From: an uncultured bacterium
GTDB lineage: Bacteria > Desulfobacterota > BSN033 > UBA1163
Assembly (NCBI GenBank): GCA_938045955.1
Contig: CALIBK010000105.1
Location: 5,187-69,186 of the forward strand
Direction of reading: 5' to 3'
DNA: 64,000 bases
Under the pieces are notes generated by a model. It saw only the letters and a program-made list of their open reading frames with translations. It was not told where the DNA came from and ran no database searches. Positions 8,219 through 28,865 of the stretch are shown in pieces; within the stretch, counting starts at the first letter, position 1; each line of letters starts with the position of its first letter. Position numbers and translations under genes: made by a program.

Positions 8219-8233
8219 AATTTCACCTCCCCT

Positions 8234-10558: not shown

Positions 10559-10782
10559 TGTTGAATTCCCTCCTTTCGTTCCTTATTTTTAGCCTTGAGT
10601 GATCATTCATTAAAATAGCCTGTAAGTGCTTCACCTCCTTTCTCATCGGATGCGATTGACAATCCATGAAAGTCGATTAATAAAAATTCTTCCTTTCCCT
10701 TCAAAGGGGCCTAAGAATCTCTCCTGAATTCCACTTAACGTAAACTGTAAAATTAAACCAAAAAAATAGAACCCCACCCGTA

Positions 10783-11190
10783 TTACTTCCGTGGTTTAAT
10801 ATTTTCTTTGACCCATCGGACGGCTTCCTCGATGGGGGTTCCCGGGGTGAAGATGGCTTTCACGCCTGCCTGTTGGAGGGAAGGGATATCTTCTTCCGGG
10901 ATGATTCCACCTCCGAAGACGATGATATCTTCGGCTCCTTTTTCTTTGAGCAGTCGGATGACTTCCGGGAAGACGTAGTCATGAGCGCCAGAGAGGATAG
11001 ACAGTCCGATGGCGTCCACGTCTTCCTGGATGGCTGCGTTGACGATCTGTTCCGGGGTCTGGTGGAGTCCGGTGTAGATGACCTCGAAGCCTGCGTCCCG
11101 GAACCCTCGGGCGATGACTTTCGCCCCCCGGTCGTGTCCATCGAGTCCGGGTTTTCCGATAAGGATTCGAATTTTTCGTTCCGTGCTCAT
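10783..11190 (-). CDS. B12-binding small subunit of a split methylmalonyl-CoA-mutase-family acyl-CoA mutase (isobutyryl-CoA mutase small-subunit-like)
   Basis: 135 aa; cobalamin-binding DxHxxG motif ([11 protein letters not shown]), Rossmann-like B12 domain. Confidence 0.85.
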
Positions 11191-11220
11191 GGTCTCTCCT
11201 CGGGTTAAGGATTCAGGGAT

Positions 11221-12894
11221 TTAGAAGTATCCCGGGTCGGTGTATCTTCCGAAGACTTCCCTCCAGACGTCACAGATCTCCTGGATGGTGGCATACTCCC
11301 GGACGGCATTGATGATGTAGGGCATCAGGTTTTCTCCACTGATCGAGGCCCGTCGGATCTCTTCGAGGCACTGTTTGACCTTTTCGTTGTTTCGGGTTCT
11401 TTTGACTTCCTTAAGTCTTCTCAGTTGTCTTTCTTCGATTTCCGGTCTCATTCTCCAGATGGGGATAGGGGGGTGGTCGGTGACGTATTTATTTACTCCT
11501 ACGATGACCTTTTCGCCTGAGTCCACCTGTTTCTGGAATCGGTAGGCGGCCTCTGCGATCTCCATCTGGGGGTATCCCCGTTCGATCGCTTTGATCATTC
11601 CTCCCATCTCGTCGATCTTTCGGATGTATTCCCAGGCCTTCTCTTCGATCTCATTGGTGAGGGCTTCGACGAAGTAGGAGCCTGCGAGGGGGTCGATGGT
11701 ATTGGTGACTCCGGTCTCTTCGGCGAGGATCTGCTGGGTTCTCAGGGCGATCGTGACCGCTTCTTCTGTGGGGATGGCGTAGGTTTCATCGAGGGAGTTG
11801 GTGTGAAGCGACTGGGTTCCTCCGAGCACCGCGGCCAGGGCCTCGTAGGCAGTCCGGATGATGTTGTTGTAGGGTTGCTGGGCGGTGAGGGAGCATCCTG
11901 CGGTCTGGGTGTGGAAGCGGAGCATCCAGGATCTTGGGTTTTTGGCCAGAAAGCGTTCTCTCATGATCTTGGCCCACATTCTTCGGGCGGCTCGGAACTT
12001 AGCGATCTCTTCGAAGAAGTCGATGTGGGAGTCGAAGAAGAAGGAGAGTCTTGGGGCGAATTCATCGACATCGAGGCCTCGTTCCATGGCTGCTTCCACG
12101 TAGGCGATGCCATCGGCCAGGGTGAAGGCCAGTTCCTGGACGGCTGTGGCTCCTGCCTCACGGATATGGTAACCGCTGATGCTGATGGTATTCCATCGGG
12201 GGACTTCCCGGGTGCAGTATTCGATGGTATCGACGATGATTCGAAGGGAGGGTTTGGGTGGGAGCATGAAGGTCTTCTGGGCGATGAACTCTTTGAGCAT
12301 GTCGTTCTGAATCGTCCCTCCGATCTGTCTCTTGCTCACCCCCTGTTTTTCGGCGACGACGATATACATGGCGAGCAGGATAGAGGCAGGGGGATTGATG
12401 GTCATCGAGGTGGTTACTCGATCGAGGGGGATTCCTTCGAAGAGAATCTCCATATCTTTCAGGGTATCGACGGCAACCCCGCACTTTCCGACCTCTCCCC
12501 GGGCCATGGGGGAGTCACTGTCGTATCCCATCAGGGTCGGGTAATGGAAGGCGATGGAGAGCCCTGTCTCTCCGTGGTCGAGGAGGTAGTGGAAGCGTTT
12601 GTTGGTCTCTTCAGGTCCTCCGAGTCCTGAGAACATCCTCATCGTCCAGAGTCTTCCCCGATACATGGAGGGCTGGACTCCCCGGGTAAAGGGATAGATC
12701 CCTGGAAAGCCGATATCTCTCGAATAGTCCAGATCTTTGATATCCTCAGGAGTGTAGAGGGGTTTGATCTCGAGATCGGAGACGGTGGTGAATCGGGGAA
12801 GTCGCTCAGGTCTCTCACAGAGGGTCTTAGAGAGTTCTTCGTTCCATTTCTTCTTCTCCTCTTTGACCTTTTGGATCTGCTCCTCCTTAAACAT
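11221..12894 (-). CDS. acyl-CoA mutase large (substrate-binding TIM-barrel) subunit, isobutyryl-CoA-mutase-like
   Basis: 557 aa; conserved MCM-family blocks ([24 protein letters not shown]; [18 protein letters not shown]; [15 protein letters not shown]). Positions equivalent to MCM Tyr89/Arg207 read Phe/Gln by eye alignment. Confidence 0.85.
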
Positions 12895-12953
12895 ATCGTA
12901 TCACTCCTTGTGACGCTCTGGATATAACGCCAGAGCACCTTATTTGCTTATTT

Positions 12954-13478
12954 TTAGATTTCGATCCCTTCTCGGGACTGGATCCCTTTTTGATAGTAGT
13001 GTTTTCTTTCGACCATCTCCGTGACCAGATCGGCTTTTTCGAGGATCTCCGGTTTTGCGTATCTTCCCGTGAGGATGAGCTCCACGGATTCGGGTTTGGA
13101 TTCCATGAGCTCAAGAACTTCTTTGAGGGGAATCAGGCCGTAGTCCACCGCCACATTGATCTCGTCCAGGATGACGATATCATAGGCTTTGCTACGGATG
13201 GCTTCTCTGGCAAGTTCGAATCCTTTTCGGGCCAGTTCCGTATCGATCGGATCGGGATTCGTTCTGGAGACGAAGGTCTCTCTGCCCATCTGGTTGATTG
13301 TGAGGTGAGGGGAGAGCCTTTTTGAGGCCTCGAGTTCTCCGTACTGGATGTTTCCCTTCATGAACTGGATCATCAGGACTTTGAGGCCGTGGCCCGCTGC
13401 TCGAAGGGCGAGGCCCAGGGCAGCGGTTGTCTTTCCCTTTCCATCTCCTGTATAGACCTGAATGAGACCTTTTTTCAT
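12954..13478 (-). CDS. cob(I)alamin adenosyltransferase (CobA/CobO/BtuR type)
   Basis: 174 aa; P-loop-like GLIQVYTGDGKGKTTAALGLALRAAGHG characteristic of CobA-type ATP:corrinoid adenosyltransferase; sits directly upstream of the mutase genes. Confidence 0.8.
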   Translation of the reverse strand: MKKGLIQVYTGDGKGKTTAALGLALRAAGHGLKVLMIQFMKGNIQYGELEASKRLSPHLTINQMGRETFVSRTNPDPIDTELARKGFELAREAIRSKAYDIVILDEINVAVDYGLIPLKEVLELMESKPESVELILTGRYAKPEILEKADLVTEMVERKHYYQKGIQSREGIEI

Positions 13479-13485: not shown

Positions 13486-15420
13486 TTAACTCAGCTCTCT
13501 GATCTGGGCGATGATCTGTTCGGTTTTGAAGTGTCTCAGGCTGATGGCGCTTGAGGGGCAGGTGGCGTTACAGGCCCCGCATCCTTTGCAGAGGGCTTCG
13601 TTGACACTCATCACCTTTCGATAGGGATCGAGTCTGAGGGCACGGTATTCGCAGATCTGTTCACAGAGGCCACAGCCTGCACAGACGAGTTCATCCACGT
13701 GGGCGGTGATCGGTTCGATCTTTACCTTTCCTGCAAAAAGCGGGACCGTAGCCCTCGAGGCTGCCCCGTGAGCCTGTGAGAGGGTATCCTGGATATCCTT
13801 GGGTCCCTGACAGGTGCCGGCGAGAAAGATCCCATCGGTTGCGGTATCGAGGGGTCTCAGTTTTGGATGGGCCTCGAGGTAGAAACGATCGGGTCCCTGA
13901 GAGAGTTTAAGGAGGCTTCTCAGTCCGTCGGAGTCAGCCCTCTGGGTAAGGCCTGTGGCGAGCACCACCAGATCAGCTTCCTCTTCATAGGGTTCTCCGA
14001 GGAGTTCGTCATCGGCTCGGATGAGAAGCTTTCCATTTCTCTGGATGATCTCGGAAGGGACCCCTTTTCGATAGAGAATCCCCTTCTTCTGGACCTGTTC
14101 GTAAAACTGTTCGTATCCCTTTCCAAAGGCTCTTACATCGATATAACAGATCGTGATCCTCGCTTCTGGAAGAAGTTCTTTGGCGAGGAAGGCCTGCTTG
14201 GCCGTAAACATGCAGCACACCCTTGAGCAGTATTCATTATTGACTGTCTTATCCCGTGAGCCCACACACTGGATAAAGAAGATCCTTTCGGGTTCTTTTC
14301 CGTCGATGAGGAGTCTTCCTTTCGTGGGTCCTTCGGGGGAGAGAAGCCTTTCGAACTCAAGGGCGGTAAGGACATTTGGATAGAGGCCGTAGCCCAATTC
14401 GGGTTTCTTTTTTGGATCGAAGGGGTCATAACCCGTGGCTACAATGATGGTCCCGATGGGGATGTCGATCTCCATCCCCACCTCCTCGAACTGAACCGCT
14501 CCTTCCGGGCAGACCTCCCGGCATCGAGTGCATTCTCCTTTTCGAAGATAGAGGCAGTGTTCGGGATCGATTAGGTAACTCAATGGAAAGGCATAAGGAG
14601 AGGGCAGATAGATGGCCTTTCTGCGGTCAAGGCCCATGTTCCATTCGTTGGGAATTTCAACCGGGCAGACCTTCTCACACTCTGCGCATCGATTACACTT
14701 CAGGGGATCCACGAAGCGGGGATACTTTCTGAGCTTTACTTTGAAGTTCCCTACGAATCCCTCCACTCCCGTCACCTCACAGAGCGTTAAAACGTGAAGA
14801 GAAGGGTATTGCTTGAGTGTCTCGATTCTGGACCTCAGGATTTCTGAGGTCTCCTCAAGGTTGGGGAAGGTTCGTGAGATCTGGGTGAGATGACCACCGA
14901 TCGACGGAGCCTTCTCCACGAGATAGACCTCGAAACCCGATGAAGCGATATCCAGAGAGGCCTGAATACCCGCGATTCCGGCTCCGATGATGAGGACAGA
15001 GGGAGTCACAGGGGCCTCTTTCTCCTCAAGGGGTTCGTGAAGGGAGACCCTGGCCACTGCCGAGGCTACAAGCTCCATTGCCTTCCGGGTTGCCTCATCA
15101 CGATCCTGATGGACCCAGGAGCACTGCTCCCGGATGTTTGCCATTTCGAAGAAATAAGGATTGAGTCCGGCTGAGCGAATCGCATTTCGATAAGTGGGCT
15201 CATGCATCCGTGGAGAACAAGCCGCAACCACAATCCGGTCGAGGCCAAGGGCTTTGATATCATTCTTGATAAGATCCTGACCTGGATCGGAACACATGTA
15301 CTGATAATGACGGGCCACCTCCACATGGGGAAGGGTCATCGCAAAGGCTCTTACTCGTTCCACATCTACTGTGGCCGCTATATTGATCCCGCAATGACAG
15401 ATATAAACACCGATCTTCAT
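13486..15420 (-). CDS. hdrA: heterodisulfide reductase subunit A-like flavoprotein (HdrA)
   Basis: 644 aa; N-terminal Cys-rich HdrA block (GVYICHCGINIA...YMCSDPGQ...VVAACSPRMHE...REQCSWVH), FAD motif IIGAGIAGIQASLD, two 2x[4Fe-4S] ferredoxin-like inserts (CNRCAECEKVCP / CTRCREVCP; CAGCGLCEQICE / CKGCGACNATCP). Confidence 0.85.
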   Translation of the reverse strand: MKIGVYICHCGINIAATVDVERVRAFAMTLPHVEVARHYQYMCSDPGQDLIKNDIKALGLDRIVVAACSPRMHEPTYRNAIRSAGLNPYFFEMANIREQCSWVHQDRDEATRKAMELVASAVARVSLHEPLEEKEAPVTPSVLIIGAGIAGIQASLDIASSGFEVYLVEKAPSIGGHLTQISRTFPNLEETSEILRSRIETLKQYPSLHVLTLCEVTGVEGFVGNFKVKLRKYPRFVDPLKCNRCAECEKVCPVEIPNEWNMGLDRRKAIYLPSPYAFPLSYLIDPEHCLYLRKGECTRCREVCPEGAVQFEEVGMEIDIPIGTIIVATGYDPFDPKKKPELGYGLYPNVLTALEFERLLSPEGPTKGRLLIDGKEPERIFFIQCVGSRDKTVNNEYCSRVCCMFTAKQAFLAKELLPEARITICYIDVRAFGKGYEQFYEQVQKKGILYRKGVPSEIIQRNGKLLIRADDELLGEPYEEEADLVVLATGLTQRADSDGLRSLLKLSQGPDRFYLEAHPKLRPLDTATDGIFLAGTCQGPKDIQDTLSQAHGAASRATVPLFAGKVKIEPITAHVDELVCAGCGLCEQICEYRALRLDPYRKVMSVNEALCKGCGACNATCPSSAISLRHFKTEQIIAQIRELS

Positions 15421-15454: not shown

Positions 15455-17698
15455 TTACTTTGAACCCCTCATTTTCCCTCTCGCAAGGAGGGTGCAGGCA
15501 AGAGCGGCTGCTCCGCTTGCCTGAGCCACCGTGTCCGGGATATCTTTCGGACCCTGACAGCAGCCGGCAAGAAAGATCCCCTCGACCGATGTTCTTATGG
15601 GGTCATGCCCCGGGGCCTCTGCAAAAAAACCCTCATCGGAATTCTCGAGACGAAGAATCTTTCCCAGCCACTCGCTCTCCTTTCGAGGAACGAGCCCTGA
15701 AGCGAGGACCACCAGATCTGCCTCGAGTTCGAAGGGCTCCCCAAGAAGGGTATCCTCCCCTCTGACTATGAGCTTCCCATCCCTTCGGTAGATCTCCGAG
15801 GGATTGGCCCTTCGATAGACGATATGCTCCTTCTGGACCCTCTCGTAGAACTCTTCGAATCCCTTTCCGAATGCCCTCACATCCATATATAAAACAGTAA
15901 TCCGAGCATCCGGAATCTTATCCCTCAAGAGATGAGCCTGCTTGGCCGTATACATACAACAGACCCTGGAACAGTATTCATTACCAACCGTCTTATCCCT
16001 CGATCCCACACAGTGGATAAAGACCACCTCTTTCGGTTTCTTTCCGTCGATCAGAATCTCTCCCCTGGTGGGTCCTGAGGCGGAGCATAGCCTCTCCATC
16101 TCGAGCCCATGGAGCACATTCGGATAGAGGCCGTATCCAAACTCGGGTTTCTTCTTCGGGTCAAAGGGATCAAAACCCGTGGCAAGGATAATGGCTCCAA
16201 CATGAAGCTCCACAATCTCTTCCTTCATCTCATAGTTAATGGCTCTGGGCTGGCAGTATCTCGCACACTCCCCGCAGTCCGAGCAGCCTCCACAGCTGAG
16301 ACACCTCCTGGCCTCCTCCATCGCCTCCTCTGCGCTGAGACCCGGGCCCATGGGTCTCACCATATCCGGAAGGGATTCCCGCTTATCCCTCTCCTTCTCA
16401 GGAAGCTCGCTCCGGATGGGAGAGGGTTTTTCTCTTTCAGGCTCTCTATCTTCATGGAGGTCATGACCCCTGAGGTAGCGATCGATAGAGCGAGCAGCCT
16501 TCCTTCCCTGAGCCATCGCCTCAACGATACTTCCAGGCCCCCTCACCGCATCCCCTCCAGCAAAGACCCCCTCAAGATTTGTCTGAAGTGTCACAGGATC
16601 AACCTCGATCATCCCCCTCCGATCCCTCTTCAAATCCCTGAGAGCTTTTGAGAGAGGCTCCACTCCATTTGATCCCACACCCAAAAAGATTGCCCCGTAA
16701 GAGGCTCGAATCTCCTCGAAGGAGAGATCCTTCCCTACCTCTGTATGGAGTCGAACCTCGATTCCCATCCTTTCGATGAGAGAGAGGTCTCTGCGGACAA
16801 TTTCTCGCGGAAGACGATAGGAAGGAAACCCATGGGTGAGGAGTCCTCCCAGCTCTTCCATGGATTCAAAGATCGTGACCCGATAACCCATCCTCCGAAG
16901 ATCGAAGGCCGAAACCAGCCCCGAAGGCCCTCCACCCACAATGGCGACTCTTTGAGGTCTCTCTTCGGGGAGTTCAAACTGAAACTCCGGCTCCTCCACA
17001 TGATCCACAAGAAACCTCTTCAGATCGCAGATCCTCACCGGGCGATCCACATCGATCCGCTTGCACTGCCGCTCACAGGGATGACTGCAAACATAGGCCA
17101 GGATCCCGGGGAAGGGAAGGGCTTTTCGAACCAGACTCAGAGCCTCTCGGAACTTCCCATGAGAGATTAATGCTACATATCCCTGAGCATTACAGCCGAG
17201 AGGACAGGCCGCCCGACAGGGAGGGATTCCACGTCGATCAATCGTATACTTCAAGGGAACGGCCTGAGGAAATGGAATATAGATGGCCTTCCTCATCCCG
17301 AGGCCCATATCAAACTCATTGGGAAGGGTGACAGGACACTGAGCCACACAATCCGCACAGGCCGTACATTTGTTAATATCCACGTAGCGGGGCTTCTTAC
17401 GAACCTTGACTCTAAAATCTCCCGCCCTTCCTTCGATGGAGATGATCTCTGAGTAGGTGAGCAGATTGATATTGGGATGATTGGCTGTATCCACCATCTT
17501 GGGGGTGATGATACAGGCCGAACAGTCAAGGGTGGGGAAGGTCTTATCCAGTTGGGCCATGTGACCACCGATTGAAGGCTCCTTCTCGACCAGATGGACG
17601 AGAAACCCCTTGTCTGCAATATCGAGAGCAGCCTGCATCCCGGCTATGCCCCCACCTATGACCAGAGCCTCGGGAATCGTTCTCTCTTCAAAATTCAT
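15455..17698 (-). CDS. HdrL-type large HdrA-like flavoprotein with inserted NAD(P)H-binding (GltD/NfnB-like) domain
   Basis: 747 aa; HdrA-like FAD motif VIGGGIAGMQAALD at N-term and HdrA-like C-terminal half (CVGSRD...CSRVCCMY...FLAGCCQGP). Inserted region has ferredoxin Cys motifs and a second Rossmann motif VAIVGGGPSGL...GGDAVRG. Confidence 0.8.
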   Translation of the reverse strand: MNFEERTIPEALVIGGGIAGMQAALDIADKGFLVHLVEKEPSIGGHMAQLDKTFPTLDCSACIITPKMVDTANHPNINLLTYSEIISIEGRAGDFRVKVRKKPRYVDINKCTACADCVAQCPVTLPNEFDMGLGMRKAIYIPFPQAVPLKYTIDRRGIPPCRAACPLGCNAQGYVALISHGKFREALSLVRKALPFPGILAYVCSHPCERQCKRIDVDRPVRICDLKRFLVDHVEEPEFQFELPEERPQRVAIVGGGPSGLVSAFDLRRMGYRVTIFESMEELGGLLTHGFPSYRLPREIVRRDLSLIERMGIEVRLHTEVGKDLSFEEIRASYGAIFLGVGSNGVEPLSKALRDLKRDRRGMIEVDPVTLQTNLEGVFAGGDAVRGPGSIVEAMAQGRKAARSIDRYLRGHDLHEDREPEREKPSPIRSELPEKERDKRESLPDMVRPMGPGLSAEEAMEEARRCLSCGGCSDCGECARYCQPRAINYEMKEEIVELHVGAIILATGFDPFDPKKKPEFGYGLYPNVLHGLEMERLCSASGPTRGEILIDGKKPKEVVFIHCVGSRDKTVGNEYCSRVCCMYTAKQAHLLRDKIPDARITVLYMDVRAFGKGFEEFYERVQKEHIVYRRANPSEIYRRDGKLIVRGEDTLLGEPFELEADLVVLASGLVPRKESEWLGKILRLENSDEGFFAEAPGHDPIRTSVEGIFLAGCCQGPKDIPDTVAQASGAAALACTLLARGKMRGSK

Positions 17699-17707: not shown

Positions 17708-18862
17708 TTATTTCAGTTTTCCTATCAGTGCGGAGGCGATGGTATTTTTCTGGATCTCTTTGGTCCCTTCGTAGATCTCCATGATCTTGGCATCCCGATA
17801 GAATCGCTCCACTTCGTACTCCGTAATATACCCGTAGCCTCCAAAGATCTGGATCGCCTCATCAGCGACCTCCACTGCCACCTTCGCCGAAAACATCTTC
17901 GCCATCGAGGTGAGCTTCGGATCAATCCCTTTATGATCAAAGTTCCAGGCCGCTTTATAGGTGAGAAGCCTTGCCGTCTCCACCTTGGTTGCCATATCGG
18001 CAAGCTTGTGCTGGGTGATCTGAAACTCCACGAGCTTCCTGCCGAACTGCTCCCTCTGGCGGGCATAATCGAGAGCCCGATCGAAGGCCCCCTGGGCAAT
18101 CCCGAGGGCCTGGGCCGCGATCTCAATCCGACTTTCGTCAAAGAACTCGAGAACCTGGTAAAACCCCTTCTTCTCTTCCCCGATCAGGTTGCTCACAGGA
18201 ACCCTCACATCACTGAAGGAGAGCTCTGCCGTAGAGGTCATCCGAATCCCCATCTTCGGAGTAATCTCCGAGACCTCAAGACCCTTTACCCCCTTCTCCA
18301 CCAGAATCGTACACTGACCCCGATAGGTAGGTCTCGCCTGAGGATCGGTTTGACAGAGAACCACAAAGAAATCGGCCAGAGAACCATTGGTGATAAAGGT
18401 CTTTGTCCCATTGATCACGAAGAAGTCTCCCTCCCTCACAGCAGTCGTTGACATCAGCGTGATATCACTTCCATGATTGGGTTCTGTATAGGCCCCACCC
18501 GAGATAGACTCGCCGCGGGTTATCGGAGGAAGATACCTCTTCTTCTGCTCCTCAGAACCAAAGCGAAGAATCACCTCCGAGGAGAAGTCCGTAAGGCTGA
18601 GGGCGACTCCCACCCCCGAGTCCTTCCGACAGAACTCCTCCACGATCAGGATATTCTCCATCACTCCATATCCCTGTCCCCCATAATCCTCAGGGAAATG
18701 GATCCCTATGAATCCGAGCTTTGCTGCCTTTTTCCATATCTCAAAGGGAAAGGCATGCTCCTTCTCCCACCGGAGGATCTTCTCCTTATCATACTCCCCT
18801 TCCATAAACTCACGGGCTGCCTTCTGAATATCCCTCTGCTCCTCGGTCAACTCAAAGTCCAT
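17708..18862 (-). CDS. acyl-CoA dehydrogenase (butyryl-CoA dehydrogenase-like)
   Basis: 384 aa; ACAD fold, catalytic motif IYEGTKEIQ; RBS GGAGGAGG; immediately upstream of hdrL and downstream of etfAB. Confidence 0.85.
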   Translation of the reverse strand: MDFELTEEQRDIQKAAREFMEGEYDKEKILRWEKEHAFPFEIWKKAAKLGFIGIHFPEDYGGQGYGVMENILIVEEFCRKDSGVGVALSLTDFSSEVILRFGSEEQKKRYLPPITRGESISGGAYTEPNHGSDITLMSTTAVREGDFFVINGTKTFITNGSLADFFVVLCQTDPQARPTYRGQCTILVEKGVKGLEVSEITPKMGIRMTSTAELSFSDVRVPVSNLIGEEKKGFYQVLEFFDESRIEIAAQALGIAQGAFDRALDYARQREQFGRKLVEFQITQHKLADMATKVETARLLTYKAAWNFDHKGIDPKLTSMAKMFSAKVAVEVADEAIQIFGGYGYITEYEVERFYRDAKIMEIYEGTKEIQKNTIASALIGKLK

Positions 18863-18880: not shown

Positions 18881-19858
18881 CTATTTTTTCATCTCTTTGA
18901 TCTTATCCTTGATGACCGGGACGATCTTGAAGAGATCGCCCACGATCCCGTAATGGGCGACGCTGAAGATCGGGGCCTTTGGATCCTTATTGATCGCAAT
19001 GATCGTCCCCGAACCCTTCATCCCTGCCACATGCTGAAAGGCACCGCTGATCCCGATGGCAATATAGACCTTGGGCTTTACGGTCTTTCCCGACGTCCCC
19101 ACCTGACAGGACTTGGGAAGCCACTTCTTATCCACCACAGGCCTTGAACAGGCCAGAGCCCCTCCAATCGAGTCCGCGAACTCCTTGACCAGAGGGATGT
19201 TTTCTGCGTCCTTGATCCCCCTTCCTACAGCAACCAGAATATCGGCCTGCGTGATATCGACCTCTCCCACCGAAGCCTCGACATACTCAATAAATCGCCT
19301 TCCCAGAACCTCATCACTGAGAGGGGAGGAGGTTGTGACAATCTCCCCCTCAATGGGCTTCTTCTCTTCCACCGAAAAGGCTCCCGATCGAAGAGTCACA
19401 AGATAAGGAGCCTTCCGAACAAAGGAGACCTCTGCATTGATCTTCCCTCCATAGATCTGACGGATAAGAGTAAAAGAATCATCTTTTGGTTCTATTCCGA
19501 TACAGTCGGTCGCAAGTGGCCAACCGAGCCTGATTGCTAAGGCAGGGACAAAATCCATTCCCTGAGCCGTGTGGCCGATTAGCGTAAGAAAGGGCTTTTT
19601 CTCTGAAAGAAACTGAAAGAGAACCCTCTCATAGGTCTCCGAATTGTAGAACTCGAGTCGATCGTCTTCGATGAGATAGACCCGATGGGCTTTTGATCGA
19701 AGGGCCTCTGCAAAAGGCTTTACGCCTTTTCCTAAAAGAACGACCGAAAGAGTCCCTTCCATAGCCTCGGCAAGCGATCTTCCCTTCGAGAGCATCTCCC
19801 AGGTGATATCCCTCAACTCCCCTCGACGATGTTCAGCGACCACCATGATCTCTTTCAT
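18881..19858 (-). CDS. etfA: electron transfer flavoprotein alpha subunit (EtfA)
   Basis: 325 aa; ETF-alpha FAD-binding C-terminal domain (PKVYIAIGISGAFQHVAGMKGSGTIIAINKDP...); start overlaps etfB stop (ATGA). Confidence 0.85.
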   Translation of the reverse strand: MKEIMVVAEHRRGELRDITWEMLSKGRSLAEAMEGTLSVVLLGKGVKPFAEALRSKAHRVYLIEDDRLEFYNSETYERVLFQFLSEKKPFLTLIGHTAQGMDFVPALAIRLGWPLATDCIGIEPKDDSFTLIRQIYGGKINAEVSFVRKAPYLVTLRSGAFSVEEKKPIEGEIVTTSSPLSDEVLGRRFIEYVEASVGEVDITQADILVAVGRGIKDAENIPLVKEFADSIGGALACSRPVVDKKWLPKSCQVGTSGKTVKPKVYIAIGISGAFQHVAGMKGSGTIIAINKDPKAPIFSVAHYGIVGDLFKIVPVIKDKIKEMKK

Positions 19859-20649
19859 CAGACAAGCCCTCCTTTATCCTTCAGAATCTCAAAGACCTTC
19901 GCTGCGACCTCCTCAGGTTTCCCCTCAAGTATCTGAGCCCCCTCCCCAACCAGAGGGAGAAAGAGCCTCTCAAGCCCGATATCCGAACCCTTAAGCCCAA
20001 CCTCCTCCTCTTTAAGCCCGAGATCAGAAAGCCCCCAAACCTTGATCTCCTTCTTTGCGACCTTCCGGATCCCCATAATCGAGACATACCGGGGCTCATT
20101 GATCCCTGTCTGAATGGTAAGAAGTGCTGGAAGCTTAACCTCCACCACCTCCTCCAATCCTCCCTCAAGCTCCCGATGAGCCCTGATCTTCCCATCCTCC
20201 ATTTCAACTCGGGTTACAATTGCCACATGAGAAAGACCGAGGAGCCTGGCGACCATCACCCCCACCTCTCCAAACCCATCATCCTCAGCCTGTGTTCCGG
20301 TAAGAATCAAATCATAAGGAAGCCTGCGGATTGCCTGTGCAAGAACCTTTGCTGTCGCAAACCCATCAGAACCCGAAAAGGCAGGATCCGTAAGCCGGAT
20401 CGCCTCATCCGCTCCCATGGCCAGACACTTCCTTAAAGACTCATTCGTATCCTCCCCTCCCATGGAGAGAACCGTCACCGTCCCCCCGAACCTCTCCTTG
20501 AGAAGAATCGCCTCCTCGATGGCATAACTGTCCCACTCATTGAGATCAAAGGCCAGTCCCGTCTTCTCAATATCTCGGCCCGATCGATCAATCGCAAGAT
20601 CCGCATCCGCCGTGTCCGGAACCCTCTTGATACAGACAATGATATTCAT
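19858..20649 (-). CDS. etfB: electron transfer flavoprotein beta subunit (EtfB)
   Basis: ORF track starts at a TTG (20655); the ATG at 20649 giving MNIIVCIKRVPDT matches the canonical ETF-beta N-terminus and has GAGGAGG RBS. Confidence 0.85.
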   Translation of the reverse strand: MNIIVCIKRVPDTADADLAIDRSGRDIEKTGLAFDLNEWDSYAIEEAILLKERFGGTVTVLSMGGEDTNESLRKCLAMGADEAIRLTDPAFSGSDGFATAKVLAQAIRRLPYDLILTGTQAEDDGFGEVGVMVARLLGLSHVAIVTRVEMEDGKIRAHRELEGGLEEVVEVKLPALLTIQTGINEPRYVSIMGIRKVAKKEIKVWGLSDLGLKEEEVGLKGSDIGLERLFLPLVGEGAQILEGKPEEVAAKVFEILKDKGGLV

Positions 20650-20668
20650 CACCAAGACCTCCTCTTTA

Positions 20669-23173
20669 TTATGAAATCTTCCCCCTCTTCGTTTCGATTC
20701 TTACCCACTTCGGCTCCCTTTCAGGATCCAAAGGGTGTGGAGAATAGAGTAAAAGAACCCCGGGCGATGGATTCCTTGAGAGATGAACCATAAACTCCAT
20801 CTCCCCTCCATCCGATGATAAAACCTTAACCCAATCCCCCTCCTCAATCCCGAGACTCCGGGCCTCCTCAGGGTTCATCTCCAAAACAGGTCTCTCCATG
20901 ACCTTTCGGAGATGCTCACTCCTCAGGCTCAAACTCCCCGACTGAAAGAGTGAAGGCCTCTCGATCAAGACATAAGGATATCCTTCAGGAGGAGCCTTCG
21001 TCTCAGGAGGAGAAAGAGGAACCAATCTTCGGAAAGGAAAATCCTCGATGGAGAGAAACCTCGCCCCTCGAGGCCACTGCCTCCCATCCTCAATCCCCTG
21101 ATAATACGAAACCTCCCTTTTTATCCCCTCCAGTACCTCAGATGGAGTCTCCCCCGGAAGAGAGACCTCAAAACGTTTCAGAAGATCCCGAAAGATCTCA
21201 AAGTCTGAACGAGACTGCCCCAGGGAAGCCCTGATGGGATGAAGTCCCTGAACCCTCCGCTCAAGACTCGTATAACTGCCCTCCTTCTCAACAAAAGAAG
21301 AGACCGGAAGCACGAGATCCGCCCTCTCAAGAAGGGCATTTGCGAAGAGATCCTGGACCACCAGAAACTCAAGCCCCTCCAATGAAGAAATGGGCCTTTC
21401 TCCAACCGCATAAAGCCCCTTGATCTGACCTCGAGAGATCTTCGATTCCATCTCCCGAAGACCCCCTCGAAGAAAAGGAATCTTCATATCCATTAATCCC
21501 TGAGTATTGCACCTCTCTAAAAGAAGAAGAATCCCCGTAGCCTCCCTTCCCAGATGCCCGGTGAGAAGAGCGAGATTCCCACAGAGAGTTCCTATCTGCC
21601 GGGCATAGGAATAAGACCACGAACCTGGACAGATAAGAATCATCGCACTTTTCGCCCGGGAAAGGCTCCTTACCGCCTCCCCGAGCAACTCCCTTGACTC
21701 AGGAGAAAGCCCGTTAAGAATTCTCAGATACTCATCCTTCCTCTCAAAAAGAGTCTCAAACCCTTCTGTATGATTATGAATAAACCCTACGTCCTGAAGC
21801 CCTTCCTCAAGAATCAAACCCACCATCCCGACGAGCAGTCTTACCTCCTCTCCTGGTCTGGAGGAGAGAAAGATCGAAGGAGGCTGAAGAGGGGAGAGCC
21901 GGGTCTTCTCACTAAGGGCAATGTCATAGCTTCCAAGGACAATAAGACGGGCACGATTCCTGCGAATCGCAAGATGCATCTCATTCTTCACAATCGGATG
22001 GGTCAGGGAAGGATCTCCCCCTACCACCAAAACCACATCCGAGCCACGAATCTCACCGATAGAGTTTGTCGAAACTCCATAACCTAAGACCTCAGAAAGT
22101 CCGTCCGAAAGACCAAAACCCGAAACCCCTCCATCCAGAACAATCTCACCAGTCCCTAATGTCTCAACAAAAAGCTTCCTGAAAAGATAATACTCCTCAT
22201 TGGTCAAACGAGAAGAGAGAAGAACTCCAATCCCTTCAGCTCCATGGCGCTCGCTAATCGATTCAAGACGGTGATAAACTACCCCCAAGGCCTCCTCCCA
22301 GGAGACCTCCCTGAGACTCCCATTGACCCTGAGAAGAGGGGATCTGAGCCTTTGAGAGGAATTCACAAAATCCCAGCCAAAACGACCCTTCACACAGAGA
22401 TTCCCATCATTGGAGCCTAAAAGAGGATCCGAATAAACCCTCTTAATCTCCCCTCCCTTGGAAGCGATCGTCAACAAACAGCCACAACCACAATAAGGAC
22501 AGGGAGTCGTCGTCTCCAGACACTCCCAGAGCTTCGTCCCATAATCAAAACACTCCGACGTAATGGCCCCAACCGGACAGGTATCCAGACACTGACCACA
22601 GAACTCACACCGAAGAGGACGATGGAAATCCGTATCAATCACACACCGAATCCCCCGACGGGTGAAAGAGAGCTCCCCAACCCCCTGAACCTCCTCACAG
22701 ATCCTCACACATCGACCACAAAGAATACACTTATTCCCATCCCGAAAAAGAAGTGGGGAGGAATCATCCACCGGATATCTGATCGGCTCCCAGGGATACT
22801 GAGTCTCCTGTAGACCATACTCATAGAGGAGCCTCTGAAGCTCACACTCCCCCTCCCTCTCACACCTCGGACAGATCATTGGATGATTAAGAAGAATGAG
22901 TTGAAGCTGAAGCCTGCGAGCATCCAGAACCCTCGGGGAATGAGTATAAACCTCCATCCCATCCCCTACAGGTGTAAAACAGGAAGGAAGAAGCTCAGAA
23001 CCCCCCTTTACCTCCACCACACAGAGCCGACAGGCCCCAAAAGGCAGAAGCCTCCTATCATCACAGAGAGTCGGAATCCGAATACCCACTGAACGGGCCA
23101 CCTCAAGAATCGTCCGACCCCTCTTTGCCTCCACCTCCATCCCGTCAATTATGAGCTTAATGCTCCCGGCCAT
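20669..23173 (-). CDS. NuoG-like 75-kDa-type subunit: N-terminal [2Fe-2S]/[4Fe-4S] ferredoxin domains fused to a molybdopterin-oxidoreductase-like domain (formate-dehydrogenase-alpha fold, apparently without catalytic Cys/Sec)
   Basis: 834 aa; N-term IKLIIDGMEVEAKRGRTILE...TLCDD..GACRLC (2Fe-2S), CxxCxxxC motifs, then MopB-like block DVVLVVGGDPSLTHPIV. Region aligning to the FDH Sec/Cys (CARVUHG) reads LDGGVSGFG, by eye only. Confidence 0.7.
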   Translation of the reverse strand: MAGSIKLIIDGMEVEAKRGRTILEVARSVGIRIPTLCDDRRLLPFGACRLCVVEVKGGSELLPSCFTPVGDGMEVYTHSPRVLDARRLQLQLILLNHPMICPRCEREGECELQRLLYEYGLQETQYPWEPIRYPVDDSSPLLFRDGNKCILCGRCVRICEEVQGVGELSFTRRGIRCVIDTDFHRPLRCEFCGQCLDTCPVGAITSECFDYGTKLWECLETTTPCPYCGCGCLLTIASKGGEIKRVYSDPLLGSNDGNLCVKGRFGWDFVNSSQRLRSPLLRVNGSLREVSWEEALGVVYHRLESISERHGAEGIGVLLSSRLTNEEYYLFRKLFVETLGTGEIVLDGGVSGFGLSDGLSEVLGYGVSTNSIGEIRGSDVVLVVGGDPSLTHPIVKNEMHLAIRRNRARLIVLGSYDIALSEKTRLSPLQPPSIFLSSRPGEEVRLLVGMVGLILEEGLQDVGFIHNHTEGFETLFERKDEYLRILNGLSPESRELLGEAVRSLSRAKSAMILICPGSWSYSYARQIGTLCGNLALLTGHLGREATGILLLLERCNTQGLMDMKIPFLRGGLREMESKISRGQIKGLYAVGERPISSLEGLEFLVVQDLFANALLERADLVLPVSSFVEKEGSYTSLERRVQGLHPIRASLGQSRSDFEIFRDLLKRFEVSLPGETPSEVLEGIKREVSYYQGIEDGRQWPRGARFLSIEDFPFRRLVPLSPPETKAPPEGYPYVLIERPSLFQSGSLSLRSEHLRKVMERPVLEMNPEEARSLGIEEGDWVKVLSSDGGEMEFMVHLSRNPSPGVLLLYSPHPLDPEREPKWVRIETKRGKIS

Positions 23174-23179: not shown

Positions 23180-25030
23180 TTACTCTATCGCCCCGAATCT
23201 GCAGGCCGTAATACAGGAACGACACCGAATACAACGCTCCGGATCAATCCTCGCAGGCTCCTTCTTCTCCCAGCTGATCGCCTCCACAGGACAGGCCTTC
23301 TTGCAAAGCCCACACATCTTACACTTCTCAGAATTGACCCTGAACCTGATCAGATTCACACAGACCAACGCAGGACAGCGCTTCTCCTCTATATGAGCCT
23401 CATACTCGGACCGAAAGTACCGAATCGTAGAAAGCACAGGATTGGGAGCCGTCTTTCCCAGTCCACAATGGGAAGTCTCTTTAATATGGTTTCCAAGACG
23501 CTCCAGAAGATCGATATCCTCAGCCCTTCCATCCCCGGAGACAATCCGATTCAAGAGATTGAGCATCACCTTCATCCCCACCCGACAGGGAACACACTTC
23601 CCACAGGACTCATCCACAGAAAACTCCGTGAAAAACCTCGCCGTATCCACCATACAGGTTCGATCATCCATCACCACCAGTCCCCCAGAACCCATCATCG
23701 CCCCAGCCTCATCGAGAGAATCAAAATCCACCTCCGTATCTAACAGAGATTCAGGCAAACAGGCCCCGGATGGACCCCCAATCTGAATTGCCTTAAACTG
23801 CCTCTTCTCCGGGATCCCCCCTCCTATTTCATAAATAATCGTTCGAAGCGTCGTTCCCATAGGAACCTCAATCAGACCCACATTTTGAACCGCCCCGGTC
23901 AGAGCAAAAACCTTCGTCCCCTTCGAACCCTTCGTCCCGAGCTCCGAAAACCACTTCCCCCCGTGAAGAAGAATACTCGGAACATTGGCAAACGTCTCCA
24001 CATTGTTGAGCACCGTAGGCTGCCCCCAGAGCCCTGCCTCTGTCGAACGAGGAGGCTTGATCCTCGGCATCCCACGCCTCCCCTCAAGCGAATACATCAG
24101 AGCCGTCGACTCCCCACAGACAAAAGCCCCGGCCCCCGGATAGATCTCAATATCAAAATCAAACCCCGCTCCCAAAATATCCCTCCCCAACACACCCCAC
24201 TTCCTTGCCTGATCAATCGCAATCGTAAGCCGATGAATCGCCAGAGGATACTCCGCCCGCACATAGATATAACCCTGATGAGAATCAATCGCATAACCAC
24301 AAATGATCATCCCTTCCAGAACCGCATGAGGATCCGCCTCAAGTATAGAACGATCCATAAAGGCACCCGGATCGCCCTCATCCCCATTGCAGATCACATA
24401 CTTCGGAAACGAAGCATACCTGCGTCCCTCCTCCCACTTCCTCCCGGTCGGAAAACCCGCACCCCCACGACCCCTCAGACCCGAAACCTTTACCTCCTCG
24501 ATCACCTCCTCAGGCCTCATCGAAGAAAGAACCTTCGCAAGCGCCGCATAGCCATCCCTCGCAATATAGTCCTCAATCCTCTCAGGATTGATCAAACTCC
24601 TATTCCTGAGCGCCCTCAAGACCTGATGACGAAAAAACGGAATCTCACCCATCAATGAGATCTTACTCTTCGACCGAGGATCTATATAAAGAAAATCCTC
24701 AACCGGCTTGCCCTTCACAAAATGCTCCTCCACCAGACGAGAAACATCCTCGGGTCTTAACTTCCGATAAAAGATCCCCTCAGGGTAAACCACCAGAATA
24801 GGACCCTCCGCACAAAAACCATTACACCCGGAGATAAAAACCCTCACCCTCTCCGTTAACCCACGACGATCAAGCTCCTCCTCAAGCCTTCTGCGAACCT
24901 TCAGAGAATTACAGGCAACACAGCCCGTACCCGCACAAACCATCAACCCATACTGACCCTCCCCCAAAACAAATGAAGGAGTAAGCGTTTTCCTCACCTC
25001 CGAAAGATTCTCGATCGTTAGGCGAACCAT
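23180..25030 (-). CDS. NuoF-like NADH-binding 51-kDa-type subunit with N-terminal thioredoxin-like [2Fe-2S] domain and C-terminal 2x[4Fe-4S] ferredoxin
   Basis: 616 aa; FMN/NADH motifs (GLRGRGGAGFPTGRKWEEG; CGESTALMYSLEG), [4Fe-4S] SxxC...CGKCVPCR, C-terminal CKMCGLCKKACP / CIRCRSCITACR. Confidence 0.85.
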   Translation of the reverse strand: MVRLTIENLSEVRKTLTPSFVLGEGQYGLMVCAGTGCVACNSLKVRRRLEEELDRRGLTERVRVFISGCNGFCAEGPILVVYPEGIFYRKLRPEDVSRLVEEHFVKGKPVEDFLYIDPRSKSKISLMGEIPFFRHQVLRALRNRSLINPERIEDYIARDGYAALAKVLSSMRPEEVIEEVKVSGLRGRGGAGFPTGRKWEEGRRYASFPKYVICNGDEGDPGAFMDRSILEADPHAVLEGMIICGYAIDSHQGYIYVRAEYPLAIHRLTIAIDQARKWGVLGRDILGAGFDFDIEIYPGAGAFVCGESTALMYSLEGRRGMPRIKPPRSTEAGLWGQPTVLNNVETFANVPSILLHGGKWFSELGTKGSKGTKVFALTGAVQNVGLIEVPMGTTLRTIIYEIGGGIPEKRQFKAIQIGGPSGACLPESLLDTEVDFDSLDEAGAMMGSGGLVVMDDRTCMVDTARFFTEFSVDESCGKCVPCRVGMKVMLNLLNRIVSGDGRAEDIDLLERLGNHIKETSHCGLGKTAPNPVLSTIRYFRSEYEAHIEEKRCPALVCVNLIRFRVNSEKCKMCGLCKKACPVEAISWEKKEPARIDPERCIRCRSCITACRFGAIE

Positions 25031-25033
25031 CTC

Positions 25034-25513
25034 TTACGAAAAACTCCGAATCGCCTCAAGGGCCTTCCTTAAATCGAGGCCCCCGAAGGTCTCCTGCCCA
25101 ACCGCCATCACCGGTGCAAGCCCACAGGCCCCAAGACAACGAACCGCCTCGAGAGAAAACCTCCGATCCCTCGTCATCCCCCCAACCTCCACCTCCAACT
25201 CTCGCTGCAAACCCTCCAGAATCTCCTTCGACCCTCGAACATAACAGGCCGTCCCTAAACAGACCCGAATCACATGCCTCCCCCTCGGATGAGTCGTAAA
25301 AAAAGAATAAAAAGAGACGACCCCGAATACCTGAGACGAAGAAAGATGAAGCCCCTCGGCCACCCTCTGCTGAACCCTCCGAGGAAGATACCCACAGATG
25401 TCCTGAACCTCCTTAAGAACCGGGATCAACGCCCCAGGCCTCCCCCGATACCGAGAAATCACCTGCTCAACCCTCTCCCACTCCTCCTTCGAAATCGTCT
25501 CAACCCACCTCAT
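25034..25513 (-). CDS. NuoE-like 24-kDa-type [2Fe-2S] thioredoxin-like ferredoxin subunit
   Basis: ATG at 25513 (track shows an upstream TTG) overlaps the stop of the preceding gene (ATGA); motif HVIRVCLGTACYVRGS...CLGACGLAPV. Confidence 0.8.
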   Translation of the reverse strand: MRWVETISKEEWERVEQVISRYRGRPGALIPVLKEVQDICGYLPRRVQQRVAEGLHLSSSQVFGVVSFYSFFTTHPRGRHVIRVCLGTACYVRGSKEILEGLQRELEVEVGGMTRDRRFSLEAVRCLGACGLAPVMAVGQETFGGLDLRKALEAIRSFS

Positions 25514-27872: not shown

Positions 27873-27980
27873 CTTTTTATTCAAAAGGGTCCGAGGATGC
27901 AAGGGTCAATGGATTCAAGTAGCAGCACCCTATAGAGATTTTTCTCTTGACCCCCTGGAGCCTCGACTCCTTAACCCCTT

Positions 27981-28829
27981 TCAGTATTGATAGAAGCCTC
28001 TACCTGTCTTACGCCCGAGGTAGCCTGCATCGACATACTTTTTTAGAAGAGGGCAGGGGCGATATTTAGGGTCTCCAAAACCTTTATAAAGGACTTCCAT
28101 AATTGCTAAACAGGTATCCAGACCAATCAAATCAGCAAGGGCAAGCGGTCCCATGGGATGATTCATTCCGAGTTTCATTACCGTATCAATCGCCTCGGGT
28201 GTGCCCACCCCTTCAAAAAGGGCATAGATGGCTTCGTTAATCATTGGCATCAGAATCCTATTAGATATGAAACCGGGAAAGTCATTCGCCTCAACAGGGG
28301 TCTTTCCCAATCTCTCAGCAAGAGATTTTACGAGATCGAAGGTTTCCTGGGAGGTTTGAAGCCCCCGGATGATTTCCACGAGTTGCATCACAGGAACCGG
28401 ATTCATAAAATGCATCCCGATGACCTGAGAGGGTCTTCCGGTGACGGAGGCAATTCTGGTAATCGAGATAGAGGAGGTATTGGTCGAAAGGATGACCTCT
28501 TTACGGCAGATTTGATCCAGCTCTTTAAAGAGATTTAATTTAAGAGACTCGTTTTCAGTGGCTGCCTCCACAACAAAATCTACCTCGGCCATCTCTTTGA
28601 TTTGAATCGTTCCTTTGATTCTACCGACGATTTCACCCTTTTTTTCGGATGTGATTTTTCCCTTCTCTACCAAACGATCCAGATTTTTTGAGATACTGGA
28701 GAGTCCTTTTTGGATGAAGGCATCCGCAATGTCATTCATGATCACTTGAAAACCAGATTGGGAGGCAACCTGAGCGATACCACTTCCCATCTGTCCTGCA
28801 CCCACTACCCCGATGGTCTTGATTTCCAT
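27981..28829 (-). CDS. 3-hydroxyacyl-CoA (3-hydroxybutyryl-CoA) dehydrogenase
   Basis: NAD motif [16 protein letters not shown] at N-terminus, C-terminal dimerisation domain; ATG at 28829 (track begins at an adjacent TTG); RBS GGAGGG. Confidence 0.85.
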
Positions 28830-28865
28830 CAAACCCTCCGTGAAAAGATTATTGCAAAGTTAACA

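Follow-up and report, generated by a model that had tools for sequence, protein, structure and literature searches.

The flavins of HdrA bifurcate electrons, and HdrA-based bifurcation is increasingly seen as modular and as reaching far beyond the methanogens. It has long been asked how syntrophs bring electrons that acyl-CoA oxidation releases at about -10 mV up to the level of NADH, H2 or formate, and to our knowledge the membrane-bound ETF:menaquinone oxidoreductase (EMO; ETF, electron-transferring flavoprotein) is the sole answer established so far. Several described HdrA proteins carry a GltD-like module inside their inserted ferredoxin domain. HdrL, found in Desulfobacterium autotrophicum and Syntrophobacter fumaroxidans, is known as a 'heterodisulfide reductase/glutamate synthase fusion', and one locus has hdrL and hdrA in tandem (PMC2702500; also PMC5947623). 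In the 'type III HdrA' of ANME-1 and Bathyarchaeia a GltD domain interrupts the ferredoxin-reducing domain (PMC12054007), and Moorella thermoacetica HdrA (Moth_1194) is built in the same way in its N-terminal half (PMC9430772). All of these stand in tandem with, or are fused to, a second HdrA, are described with an NAD(P)H site (the Moorella HdrA oxidises NADH), and are followed by MvhD in dsr, mvh, fdh or metFV contexts. Here we describe an HdrL-like protein of the same design, also in tandem with a second HdrA, that is encoded on the minus strand at positions 15455-17698 of a 64,000-nucleotide stretch of contig CALIBK010000105.1 from an uncultured Desulfobacterota bacterium (the window, to which all coordinates without a locus name refer). 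It differs from the described proteins in that its GltD module is missing the NAD(P)H-binding subdomain, and its gene is surrounded not by mvhD but by NuoEFG, Etf and acyl-CoA dehydrogenase (ACAD) genes.

The coordinates delimit one open reading frame (ORF) with an ATG start that encodes 747 residues, the stop codon lying inside the end coordinate. An initial annotation made from the sequence had taken the protein for an HdrL-type HdrA paralog interrupted by a GltD-like NAD(P)H-binding domain, and the motifs that it quoted were all found: VIGGGIAGMQAALD at residues 13-26, CVGSRD at 563-568, CSRVCCMY at 576-583 and FLAGCCQGP at 709-717 and, in the insert, VAIVGGGPSGL at 251-261 and GGDAVRG at 381-387. 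The best match in the PDB (phmmer) was HdrA of Methanothermococcus thermolithotrophicus (5ODC_A, E = 1e-152), which aligned in two co-linear pieces (Table 1) and thus defined one clean insertion of 315 residues (157-471). The two halves of an HdrA core and the interruption between them are therefore borne out, the interruption being longer than the 250 or so residues first estimated. It separates the two Cys motifs that HdrA has in its inserted ferredoxin domain, namely CTACADCVAQCP (111-122) and CSDCGECARYC (472-482).

Apart from the insert, the protein is a trimmed HdrA. Its core is about 60% identical to that of type I methanogen HdrA (5ODC, 8RVU, 7BKB; pairwise alignment), with which it shares the FAD site, the CxxC pair, the Glu/Lys residues, the core [4Fe-4S] motif and both inserted-ferredoxin Cys motifs. 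Unlike type I HdrA, it has neither the N-terminal MvhD-like domain (residues 1-140) nor the C-terminal 2x[4Fe-4S] ferredoxin domain: the FAD motif is found already at residue 15 and the protein stops at the end of the HdrA core. The thioredoxin-reductase-like core itself was recovered both in the 5ODC_A alignment and by Foldseek. In its N-terminal part the FAD motif GxGxxG (15-20), the Cys59/Cys62 pair and the first CxxCxxCxxxCP motif (111-122) are invariant in 120 relatives; the C-terminal part contains the second ferredoxin Cys motif, the core [4Fe-4S] ligands C563, C576, C580 and C581 (also invariant), E535, K586 and C713/C714. The signature of a bifurcating flavin (E535, K586, C59 and C62) is thus present and invariant in the same 120 relatives. 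Their Glu and Lys are the equivalents of E356 and K409 in the M. thermolithotrophicus protein, and a passage of PMC9430772 that cites Appel et al. 2021 gives Glu356/Lys409 as the criterion for bifurcating HdrA flavins. The same length and architecture recur at 73-87% identity in at least 120 clusters (90% identity; NCBI, JGI, ENA and Logan), so the gene is not an assembly artefact. The nearest relatives come from metagenome-assembled genomes (MAGs) labelled Syntrophaceae, Syntrophorhabdus, Thermodesulfobacteriota or delta proteobacterium.

We then examined the insert. Pfam models placed Fer4_20 at residues 159-236 and Pyr_redox_2 at 245-398, and NCBIfam models of the GltD, NfnB, YgfK and PRK12771 types matched as well, each split into two stretches. 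The same split appeared when the insert alone was aligned with PDB chains. Among solved structures it is most similar to the GltD-like domains of NfnA/StnC (E = 4.5e-73 to 2.9e-64, compared with 1.5e-51 for NfnB of NfnI). Insert positions 5-189 and 199-327 fell on residues 102-287 and 442-577 of NfnA from Caldicellulosiruptor NfnABC (9BOV_A), and positions 5-190 and 183-256 on residues 50-250 and 399-471 of Pyrococcus furiosus NfnI (5JCA_L); StnC, Thermotoga NfnB, GltD and DPD gave the same two-piece pattern. The roughly 150 target residues that are skipped constitute the NADPH-binding Rossmann subdomain with its second glycine-rich loop. As a positive control, the insert of a full-length relative (L017) aligned with 9BOV_A, 8OH5_C and 4YLF_B in one unbroken stretch. 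In 17 such full-length relatives, proteins of about 900 residues from Anaerolineae/Chloroflexota, Thermoplasmatota, Hadarchaeota and Heimdallarchaeota, 158-167 residues separate the equivalents of window residues 344 and 358, as against 14 in the window family, and these extra residues contain GGGN(V/T/A)A(I/L)D and YRRSR..EMPA. Neither GGGNxA nor YRRSR occurs in the window protein, no counterpart of the second Rossmann (NADPH) domain of GltD, NfnB or DPD was found in the alignments, and the 747 residues hold only two GxGxxG motifs, those of the HdrA and GltD FAD sites.

Since the family-specific alignments skip the NADPH subdomain, VAIVGGGPSGL and the following FES...GGLL..G.P.YRLP correspond to the FAD site of GltD/NfnB; by the same alignments GGDAVRGP...AMAQGRKAA is the C-terminal FAD motif of the GltD fold, and the NAD(P)H-binding half of this two-dinucleotide-binding fold is excised. 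The junction is the most variable segment of the family, with none of its 13 positions invariant. The insert is thus GltD/NfnB-like and carries ferredoxin-type Cys motifs, as first proposed, while its 'second Rossmann motif' turns out to be a FAD site and not a pyridine-nucleotide site. It is accordingly very unlikely that the insert binds a pyridine nucleotide and gives the complex, in addition to NuoF, a further point dedicated to the entry of NAD(P)H, as the initial annotation had it. Generic Rossmann models do match the region (profile positions 139-291 of Pyr_redox_2; Pyr_redox, PF00070, at residues 250-285), and full-length HdrL, type III HdrA and Moorella HdrA are thought or have been shown to use NAD(P)H (PMC2702500, PMC12054007, PMC9430772). 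However, residues 245-344 fall on the FAD site, the subdomain with the GGGNxA loop and the YRRSR 2'-phosphate motif is gone, the two GxGxxG motifs are both accounted for by FAD, and an attempt to place the single Rossmann motif on the NADPH subdomain with HMMER failed, with scores near 0. The protein lacks the NAD(P)H site that defines HdrL and hence offers no second entry point. We infer that it is unable to oxidise NAD(P)H itself, and that the neighbouring NuoF-like subunit is probably the sole NADH site of a predicted fatty-acid-linked bifurcating complex.

What remains of the insert is well preserved. In a comparison of 120 family members, invariant positions made up 21-41% of the insert segments and 53-62% of the HdrA core, so that the insert is the faster-evolving part; nevertheless, the putative cluster ligands Cys161, 165, 169, 204, 208, 212, 224, 466 and 469 and the FAD-motif residues G255/G257/G260, E278, G284/G285, R295, GGD 381-383 and G398/R399 are 97-100% conserved. 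The first seven cysteines (98-100%) lie in the helical two-[4Fe-4S] domain, which scores above the PF14691 cut-off, and align with ligands of NfnA, StnC and NfnB (9BOV_A, 8OH5_C, 5JCA_L). In the FAD-binding domain GGGPSG (255-260), GGLL (284-287), YRLP (294-297), GGD and G398/R399 are invariant and E278 is 97% conserved. The EEARRCLSCG sequence near the end of the insert is the 'RCLxC' cluster-ligand segment, which stands at the N-terminus of NfnB and, in NfnA/StnC, comes after the GltD module (insert positions 271-315 align with 5JCA_L 2-45, and 292-327 with 9BOV_A 543-577). This permutation, with 'EA-RCLxC' after the flavin domain, is common to the insert, NfnA/StnC and full-length HdrL inserts, and is therefore a general property of HdrL inserts. 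Such conservation within a faster-evolving insert argues that it still binds two [4Fe-4S] clusters and, as far as the motifs can tell, FAD. An AlphaFold2 model built from an alignment of 55 sequences that included 50%-identity representatives had a pLDDT of 90.7 and a pTM of 0.86 (a model from 30 close homologues only reached pLDDT 57.8 and was discarded). In it, the junction (343-352) forms a short ordered helix with pLDDT above 90, and the linker at 426-442 is disordered (pLDDT below 50). Foldseek matched the model first to HdrA chains, with a target-normalised TM-score of 0.95 for the 428-residue core chain 8RWN_A, and after these to NfnABC, StnABC, NfnB, GltD and DPD.

The adjacent gene encodes, as the initial annotation had recognised, an HdrA of canonical architecture: its 644 residues match NF040770 co-linearly and include the N-terminal domain, the core, the inserted ferredoxin domain and the C-terminal ferredoxin domain. 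On the two bifurcation sites considered in the initial annotation the evidence is mixed: this partner keeps the Glu/Lys signature, as HdrL does, and lacks the CxxC pair at residues ~183-196 (TFPNLEETSEI versus TFPTLDCSACI in HdrL). The asymmetry is kept in all bacterial Etf-linked loci examined and not in archaeal HdrA/HdrL tandems, and it suggests that the HdrL unit alone may be the complete bifurcating site of the pair. A comparable asymmetry is seen in BamE, a fused HdrA dimer that is part of BamB-I, the class II benzoyl-CoA reductase of Geobacter metallireducens: only one of its units has the full hallmarks of bifurcation, and a Cys59-Cys62 disulfide marks a catalytic state (bioRxiv 10.64898/2026.04.10.717634); in the window, two HdrA genes are present and only HdrL has the CxxC pair. 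About 30 insert-bearing proteins among the 150 best representatives (see below) join an HdrL-type and an HdrA-type unit in one polypeptide, which argues that the two window proteins would likewise form a heterodimer.

The two genes belong to an operon whose order is thiolase, 3-hydroxyacyl-CoA dehydrogenase (HADH), ACAD, HdrD-like, NuoE, NuoF, NuoG-like, EtfB, EtfA, ACAD, HdrL, HdrA, corrinoid adenosyltransferase, mutase of the methylmalonyl-CoA mutase (MCM) family and B12-binding subunit, with gaps of -4 to 78 bp. The NuoF-like subunit noticed at the outset is therefore in the same operon. It has the FMN/NADH site (GRGGAGFPTG, CGKCVPCR), an N-terminal [2Fe-2S] domain and a C-terminal 2x[4Fe-4S] domain, extra domains that are typical of HydB/BfuB (PMC9304861). 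The NuoG-like protein (834 residues) matches NAD-dependent formate dehydrogenases as well as NuoG. No Cys-His or Sec-His motif occurs anywhere in it, which rules out a formate dehydrogenase with formate as a third substrate; by its domain content it is a scaffold, as are NuoG, BamI, StnC and NiFe-Bfu. With NuoE and NuoF of the HydC/HydB type and a NuoG-like scaffold without a catalytic Mo/W site, the operon agrees in this module with supercomplexes of the Bfu-HdrA kind. A hidden Markov model (HMM) built from six MvhD sequences and tblastn revealed no MvhD/FlpD in the 64-kb window, and the operon contains no DsrC, TusA or MvhD. Of the HdrL-type label, then, the GltD module inside the inserted ferredoxin domain stands, and the NAD(P)H site and the adjacent mvhD do not.

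Two solved systems are informative here. The Bfu-family complexes NfnABC and StnABC (9BOV, 9N5U, 8OH5) have, like the window, NuoE/NuoF-like BfuC/BfuB subunits and a NuoG-like iron-sulfur chain. In NfnA/StnC, the closest solved relatives of the insert, the GltD-like module and this chain share one polypeptide and the NADPH domain is kept as an NADP(H) site; in the window the module is inside an HdrA core, the NuoG-like protein is separate and the NADPH domain is gone. In BamB-I, a HydBC/Bfu-type NuoE/F/G module (BamGHI) feeds the HdrA pair, and the HdrD-like BamD, on which ETF docks, hands the high-potential electron to ETF; the reduced ETF can drive reduction of crotonyl-CoA by BCD (bioRxiv 10.64898/2026.04.10.717634). 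ETF docks on the HdrD-like domain of EMO, too, the docking domains in both systems being of the HdrD/HdrB type with non-cubane clusters. The window has gene-level counterparts of this module and encodes an HdrD-like protein, an HdrA pair and an ETF in conserved adjacency, HdrD-EtfB-EtfA being kept together across Thermodesulfobacteriota, Anaerolineae and Bacillota. It differs from BamB-I in having no MvhD-like BamF and no tungsten BamBC output (no AOR-type gene was found among the ORFs scanned, up to 58.7 kb), in carrying the truncated GltD insert, which is not reported in BamE, and in including ETF and ACAD in the operon.

The reading that we favour, and to which we assign roughly even chances, is that HdrL and HdrA form a heterodimer, that NADH enters at NuoF and that the truncated insert relays electrons to the HdrL flavin. 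NADH would be handled at the FMN of the HydB/BfuB-type NuoF, and electrons would pass along the NuoG-like iron-sulfur chain to the insert (its FAD and/or two clusters). The split ferredoxin domain, with its two clusters, would then hand them on to the HdrL flavin with Cys59/Cys62, Glu535 and Lys586. The high-potential branch would run through HdrD and EtfAB to ACAD and the enoyl-CoA/acyl-CoA couple, and the low-potential branch through the free ferredoxin domains of the partner HdrA to ferredoxin. As a whole, the system would carry out, in either direction, the equivalent of the Bcd-EtfAB reaction: 2 NADH + Fd(ox) + enoyl-CoA <-> 2 NAD+ + Fd(red) + acyl-CoA. A syntroph that oxidises fatty acids would use it in the direction of acyl-CoA oxidation, confurcating electrons from acyl-CoA and reduced ferredoxin onto NAD+. 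The same reading, at the same even chances, has the truncated form derived by deletion from a full, NAD(P)H-binding HdrL.

We determined how widespread this arrangement is by scanning 1.84 billion representatives and sorting the best 150 (50% identity) by per-segment HMMs. A full GltD insert was present in about 57, some 25 of them fused to a second HdrA (1470-1530 residues, Moorella type). Roughly 15-18 lacked the NADPH subdomain according to the HMMs, a number that domain spacing reduces to about 13-14 clear cases, the others having simply diverged; some of these truncated forms stand alone, and others have an N-terminal extension or are joined to a second HdrA (1320-1350 residues). Double HdrA without insert (BamE/S. 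ovata type) accounted for 48 and plain HdrA for 16. The tandem had been called unusual; the many insert-bearing representatives and the published HdrL, Moorella HdrA and type III HdrA do not uphold this view. We found no description of a variant without the NADPH subdomain in the literature searched, which did not include the HdrA review by Appel et al. 2021. The HdrA-GltD fusion is thus already known, and the truncated variant and its conserved operon without MvhD are possibly new.

Gene neighbourhoods were compared in 80 genome loci. Those of the truncated type (L001-L011 and L077) always had the same neighbours, and NuoE-NuoF-NuoG was upstream in all nine loci with enough upstream sequence. 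Five orthologous operons (L012, L014, L015, L036 and L049; at ~9900-11300 in each) have a ~440-residue HdrA-core paralog without insert in place of HdrL, in the order HADH-ACAD-HdrD-EtfB-EtfA-ACAD-shortHdrA-HdrA-CobA-MCM, and NuoE/NuoF was absent from all five. Some 33 genome loci with a full insert were without a NuoE/NuoF pair (for example, HdrL-HdrD-HdrA-EtfB-EtfA in Anaerolineae), one of them (L066) having a single NuoE-like gene downstream. A metagenome scan with the alignment of fused truncated forms listed almost only fused proteins with a full insert, which served as a negative control for NuoEF: about 55 more loci were alike, the exceptions being L117, with NuoG-like and NuoF-like genes downstream, and L114. 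Thus, NuoE-NuoF-NuoG was upstream in none of the approximately 85 full-insert loci, some Nuo-like gene or fusion being found elsewhere in L066, L114 and L117.

Since the truncated loci compared above form one clade, other truncated lineages were looked up by exact sequence; four of the contigs were too short. One independent lineage, P0122 (46% identity), reads NuoE-NuoF-NuoG-HdrC-HdrB-[HdrL::HdrA]-MvhD. No NuoEFG was seen in P0144 (MetF-HdrC-HdrB-[HdrL::HdrA]-MvhD-MetV-MetF) or in P0219 (TusA-MvhD-HdrL-HdrA-HdrC-HdrB-DsrE at 60-7046 of L168, a sulfur-trafficking context), and P0205 has unrelated genes and no NuoEFG upstream. The last three lead us to reject the notion that a truncated insert always goes with NuoEFG; the link is recurrent and not obligatory. 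MvhD adjoins other truncated lineages.

Three further loci bear related arrangements. At 8342-11425 of L114, NuoF is fused to a complete GltD-like module (1028 residues) next to a NuoG-fused double HdrA; at 9974-11248 of L127, a stand-alone protein with Fer4_20 and the FAD domain, without the NADPH subdomain, adjoins a fused double HdrA; and at 847-4194 of L167 (P0160) a truncated HdrL, likewise without the NADPH subdomain, is joined to the ATPase domain of a histidine kinase and lies beside a response regulator, an arrangement that may serve redox sensing.

In a crude neighbour-joining tree of the core, the truncated forms do not group together and are scattered among the full ones, a pattern suggestive of recurrent loss of the subdomain. 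The window family stands beside the ~440-residue insert-less orthologues in one Thermodesulfobacteriota clade, in which truncated and insert-less forms are intermixed and whose outgroups are all full, so that the clade looks like a reductive series. This topology also fits the main rival to the relay reading, which we regard as possible but clearly less probable: the insert would be a structural remnant nearing loss, and NuoEFG would feed the N-terminal MvhD-like and C-terminal ferredoxin domains of the partner HdrA. The faster evolution of the insert would be expected of a remnant, as would the FAD motifs of other truncated lineages, which are degenerate in P0138 (GSGPTA) and P0219 (GSGAGA) and missing in P0169; in BamE, moreover, the second FAD is structural and the Bfu arm joins via the MvhD-like BamF and the C-terminal ferredoxin domain (bioRxiv 10.64898/2026.04.10.717634). 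The near-complete conservation of cluster ligands and FAD motifs in the window family speaks against a remnant, as do the lack of an MvhD adaptor in the window and the co-variation of insert and NuoEFG within the clade. So does a group of Anaerolineae MAGs (L054, 6472-10831; L079, L060 and L158) in which a break behind the first ferredoxin Cys motif divides the HdrA-core paralog. There, a first ORF of 147 residues contains the FAD beta-alpha-beta unit and this motif, nuoE and a Bfu-type nuoF follow, and the last ORF fuses the N-terminal [2Fe-2S]+2x[4Fe-4S] domain of NuoG to the rest of the HdrA core (in L158, further to a second HdrA). NuoG is thus attached at the very region that elsewhere takes a complete or a truncated GltD, which points to the inserted-ferredoxin region as an attachment place for electron-input modules.

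Several observations weigh against the relay reading itself. The association with NuoEFG within the window clade is a single evolutionary event; P0144, P0219 and P0205 indicate that truncation is not generally tied to NuoEFG; and the insert-less operons without NuoEFG indicate that the insert is dispensable for the Etf/ACAD/HdrD/HdrA core. The putative occupancy of a GltD FAD domain by FAD when its NADPH domain is missing is judged from motifs, and we infer the complex from gene order alone. If NuoEFG is a true Bfu-type module that confurcates and delivers electrons at about -400 mV, bifurcating these once more, onto ETF (~0 mV), would call for a very-low-potential acceptor, and none is visible in the operon. 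EtfAB has as its best PDB match the non-bifurcating W3A1 ETF and then the bifurcating CarD, so that PDB similarity alone matches both types.

The reliance on gene order also leaves room for a different, rather improbable, arrangement in which the genes are co-transcribed and their products form no single supercomplex. HdrL/HdrA/HdrD would act on a thiol/disulfide or other carrier, NuoEFG would work on its own between NADH and ferredoxin, and the electrons of EtfAB/ACAD would go to a membrane ETF:quinone oxidoreductase whose gene lies elsewhere. Action on such a carrier has been proposed for the Flx-Hdr and HdrL systems of sulfate reducers, HdrL clusters of these organisms have been discussed with DsrC as partner (PMC5947623), and the membrane-bound EMO is the established route in Syntrophus. 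However, the gene set is contiguous in many MAGs, with gaps of -4 to 34 bp, the HdrD-EtfBA-HdrA core is kept across three phyla, and the window operon is devoid of DsrC, TusA and MvhD.

Table 1. Features of the HdrL-like gene, its partner and the surrounding operon (window coordinates)
Feature	Position	Strand	Evidence or remarks
HdrL-like ORF, 747 aa (amino acids), HdrA core with truncated GltD-like insert	15455..17698	-	alignments, AlphaFold2, Foldseek
HdrA core, N-terminal part, residues 10-156	17231..17671	-	5ODC_A 145-291
Insert part 1, residues 157-244, GltD-type helical domain with two putative [4Fe-4S] (Fer4_20)	16967..17230	-	PF14691, E = 2.7e-15
Insert part 2, residues 245-344, N-terminal half of GltD FAD-binding domain	16667..16966	-	alignment to NfnA, StnC, NfnB, GltD, DPD
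Deletion junction, residues 345-357	16628..16666	-	13-14 residues in place of the ~160-aa NAD(P)H-binding Rossmann subdomain
Insert part 3, residues 358-412, C-terminal half of GltD FAD-binding domain (VFAGGDAVRGP...AMAQGRKAA)	16463..16627	-	GGD 381-383 and G398/R399 invariant
Insert part 4, residues 413-471, charged linker, then EEARRCLSCG	16286..16462	-	insert-versus-PDB alignments
HdrA core, C-terminal part, residues 472-743	15470..16285	-	5ODC_A 293-570
Partner HdrA, 644 aa, canonical domain order	13486..15420	-	NF040770, 830 bits, residues 2-643 on profile 1-640
ACAD	17708..18862	-	profile matches
EtfA (18881-19858) and EtfB (19858-20655)	18881..20655	-	profile and PDB matches
NuoG-like/formate-dehydrogenase-like subunit, BfuA-like scaffold	20669..23173	-	domain matches
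NuoF-like (23180-25030) and NuoE-like (25034-25516)	23180..25516	-	domain content
Soluble HdrD-like protein, 2x[4Fe-4S] domain and two CCG domains	25513..26661	-	profile matches
Upstream beta-oxidation genes: ACAD, 3-hydroxyacyl-CoA dehydrogenase, thiolase	26727..30044	-	same packed operon
ATP:corrinoid adenosyltransferase, MCM-family large subunit, B12-binding subunit	10783..13478	-	profile matches

The corrinoid, MCM and B12 genes are next to HdrA also in L002-L015, L036, L049 and L077. Beyond them in the window lie two SCP-x-type thiolases with DUF35/OB-fold partners (7171-10558), and this downstream gene set looks like a carbon-skeleton-rearranging acyl-CoA pathway of the isobutyryl or alkylsuccinyl type. 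At the other end of the operon, the ORF of a MerR-family regulator (29998-30471) overlaps the annotated start of the thiolase (28866-30044) by 47 nt; the true start codon of the thiolase is probably further on, and the regulator may control the operon. Farther away, 41764-44147 encodes in a row an NrfD-like membrane protein, a 4Fe-4S dicluster protein and a ThiF-family protein. At 48758-52640 there is a molybdoenzyme of the xanthine dehydrogenase family, similar to 4-hydroxybenzoyl-CoA reductase, with subunits of 779 (MoCo), 160 ([2Fe-2S]) and 325 (FAD) residues; the TRAP transporters and CoA ligases that flank it hint at catabolism of aromatic acids.

For annotation, these results mean that pipelines and readers would call the Rossmann motif of the insert an NAD(P)H site and so assign the wrong substrate site to this subfamily. 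The full, NADPH-domain-less and insert-less HdrL forms, together with the split forms fused to NuoG, constitute a natural series of input-module exchange at the inserted ferredoxin domain. The operon is a more interesting object than the gene. It is common to many uncultured Syntrophaceae-like Thermodesulfobacteriota and joins, in one transcription unit, ETF, ACAD, an HdrD-like protein, two HdrA units and a Bfu-type NADH module, following the logic of the class II benzoyl-CoA reductase; a soluble route of acyl-CoA-linked bifurcation or confurcation is thereby made directly testable. More speculatively, and with a good deal less confidence than we place in the relay, the truncated GltD module may be a built-in replacement for MvhD that docks the Bfu-type NuoEFG on HdrL/HdrA through an interface homologous to the GltD-NuoG contact within NfnA/StnC, yielding a soluble two-stage bifurcating/confurcating machine. 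If this is true, the machine would couple acyl-CoA/enoyl-CoA, via ETF and HdrD, to NAD(H) and ferredoxin, and would offer syntrophs that oxidise fatty acids a route through the cytoplasm, as an alternative to the membrane-bound EMO, for the step that is thermodynamically hardest.

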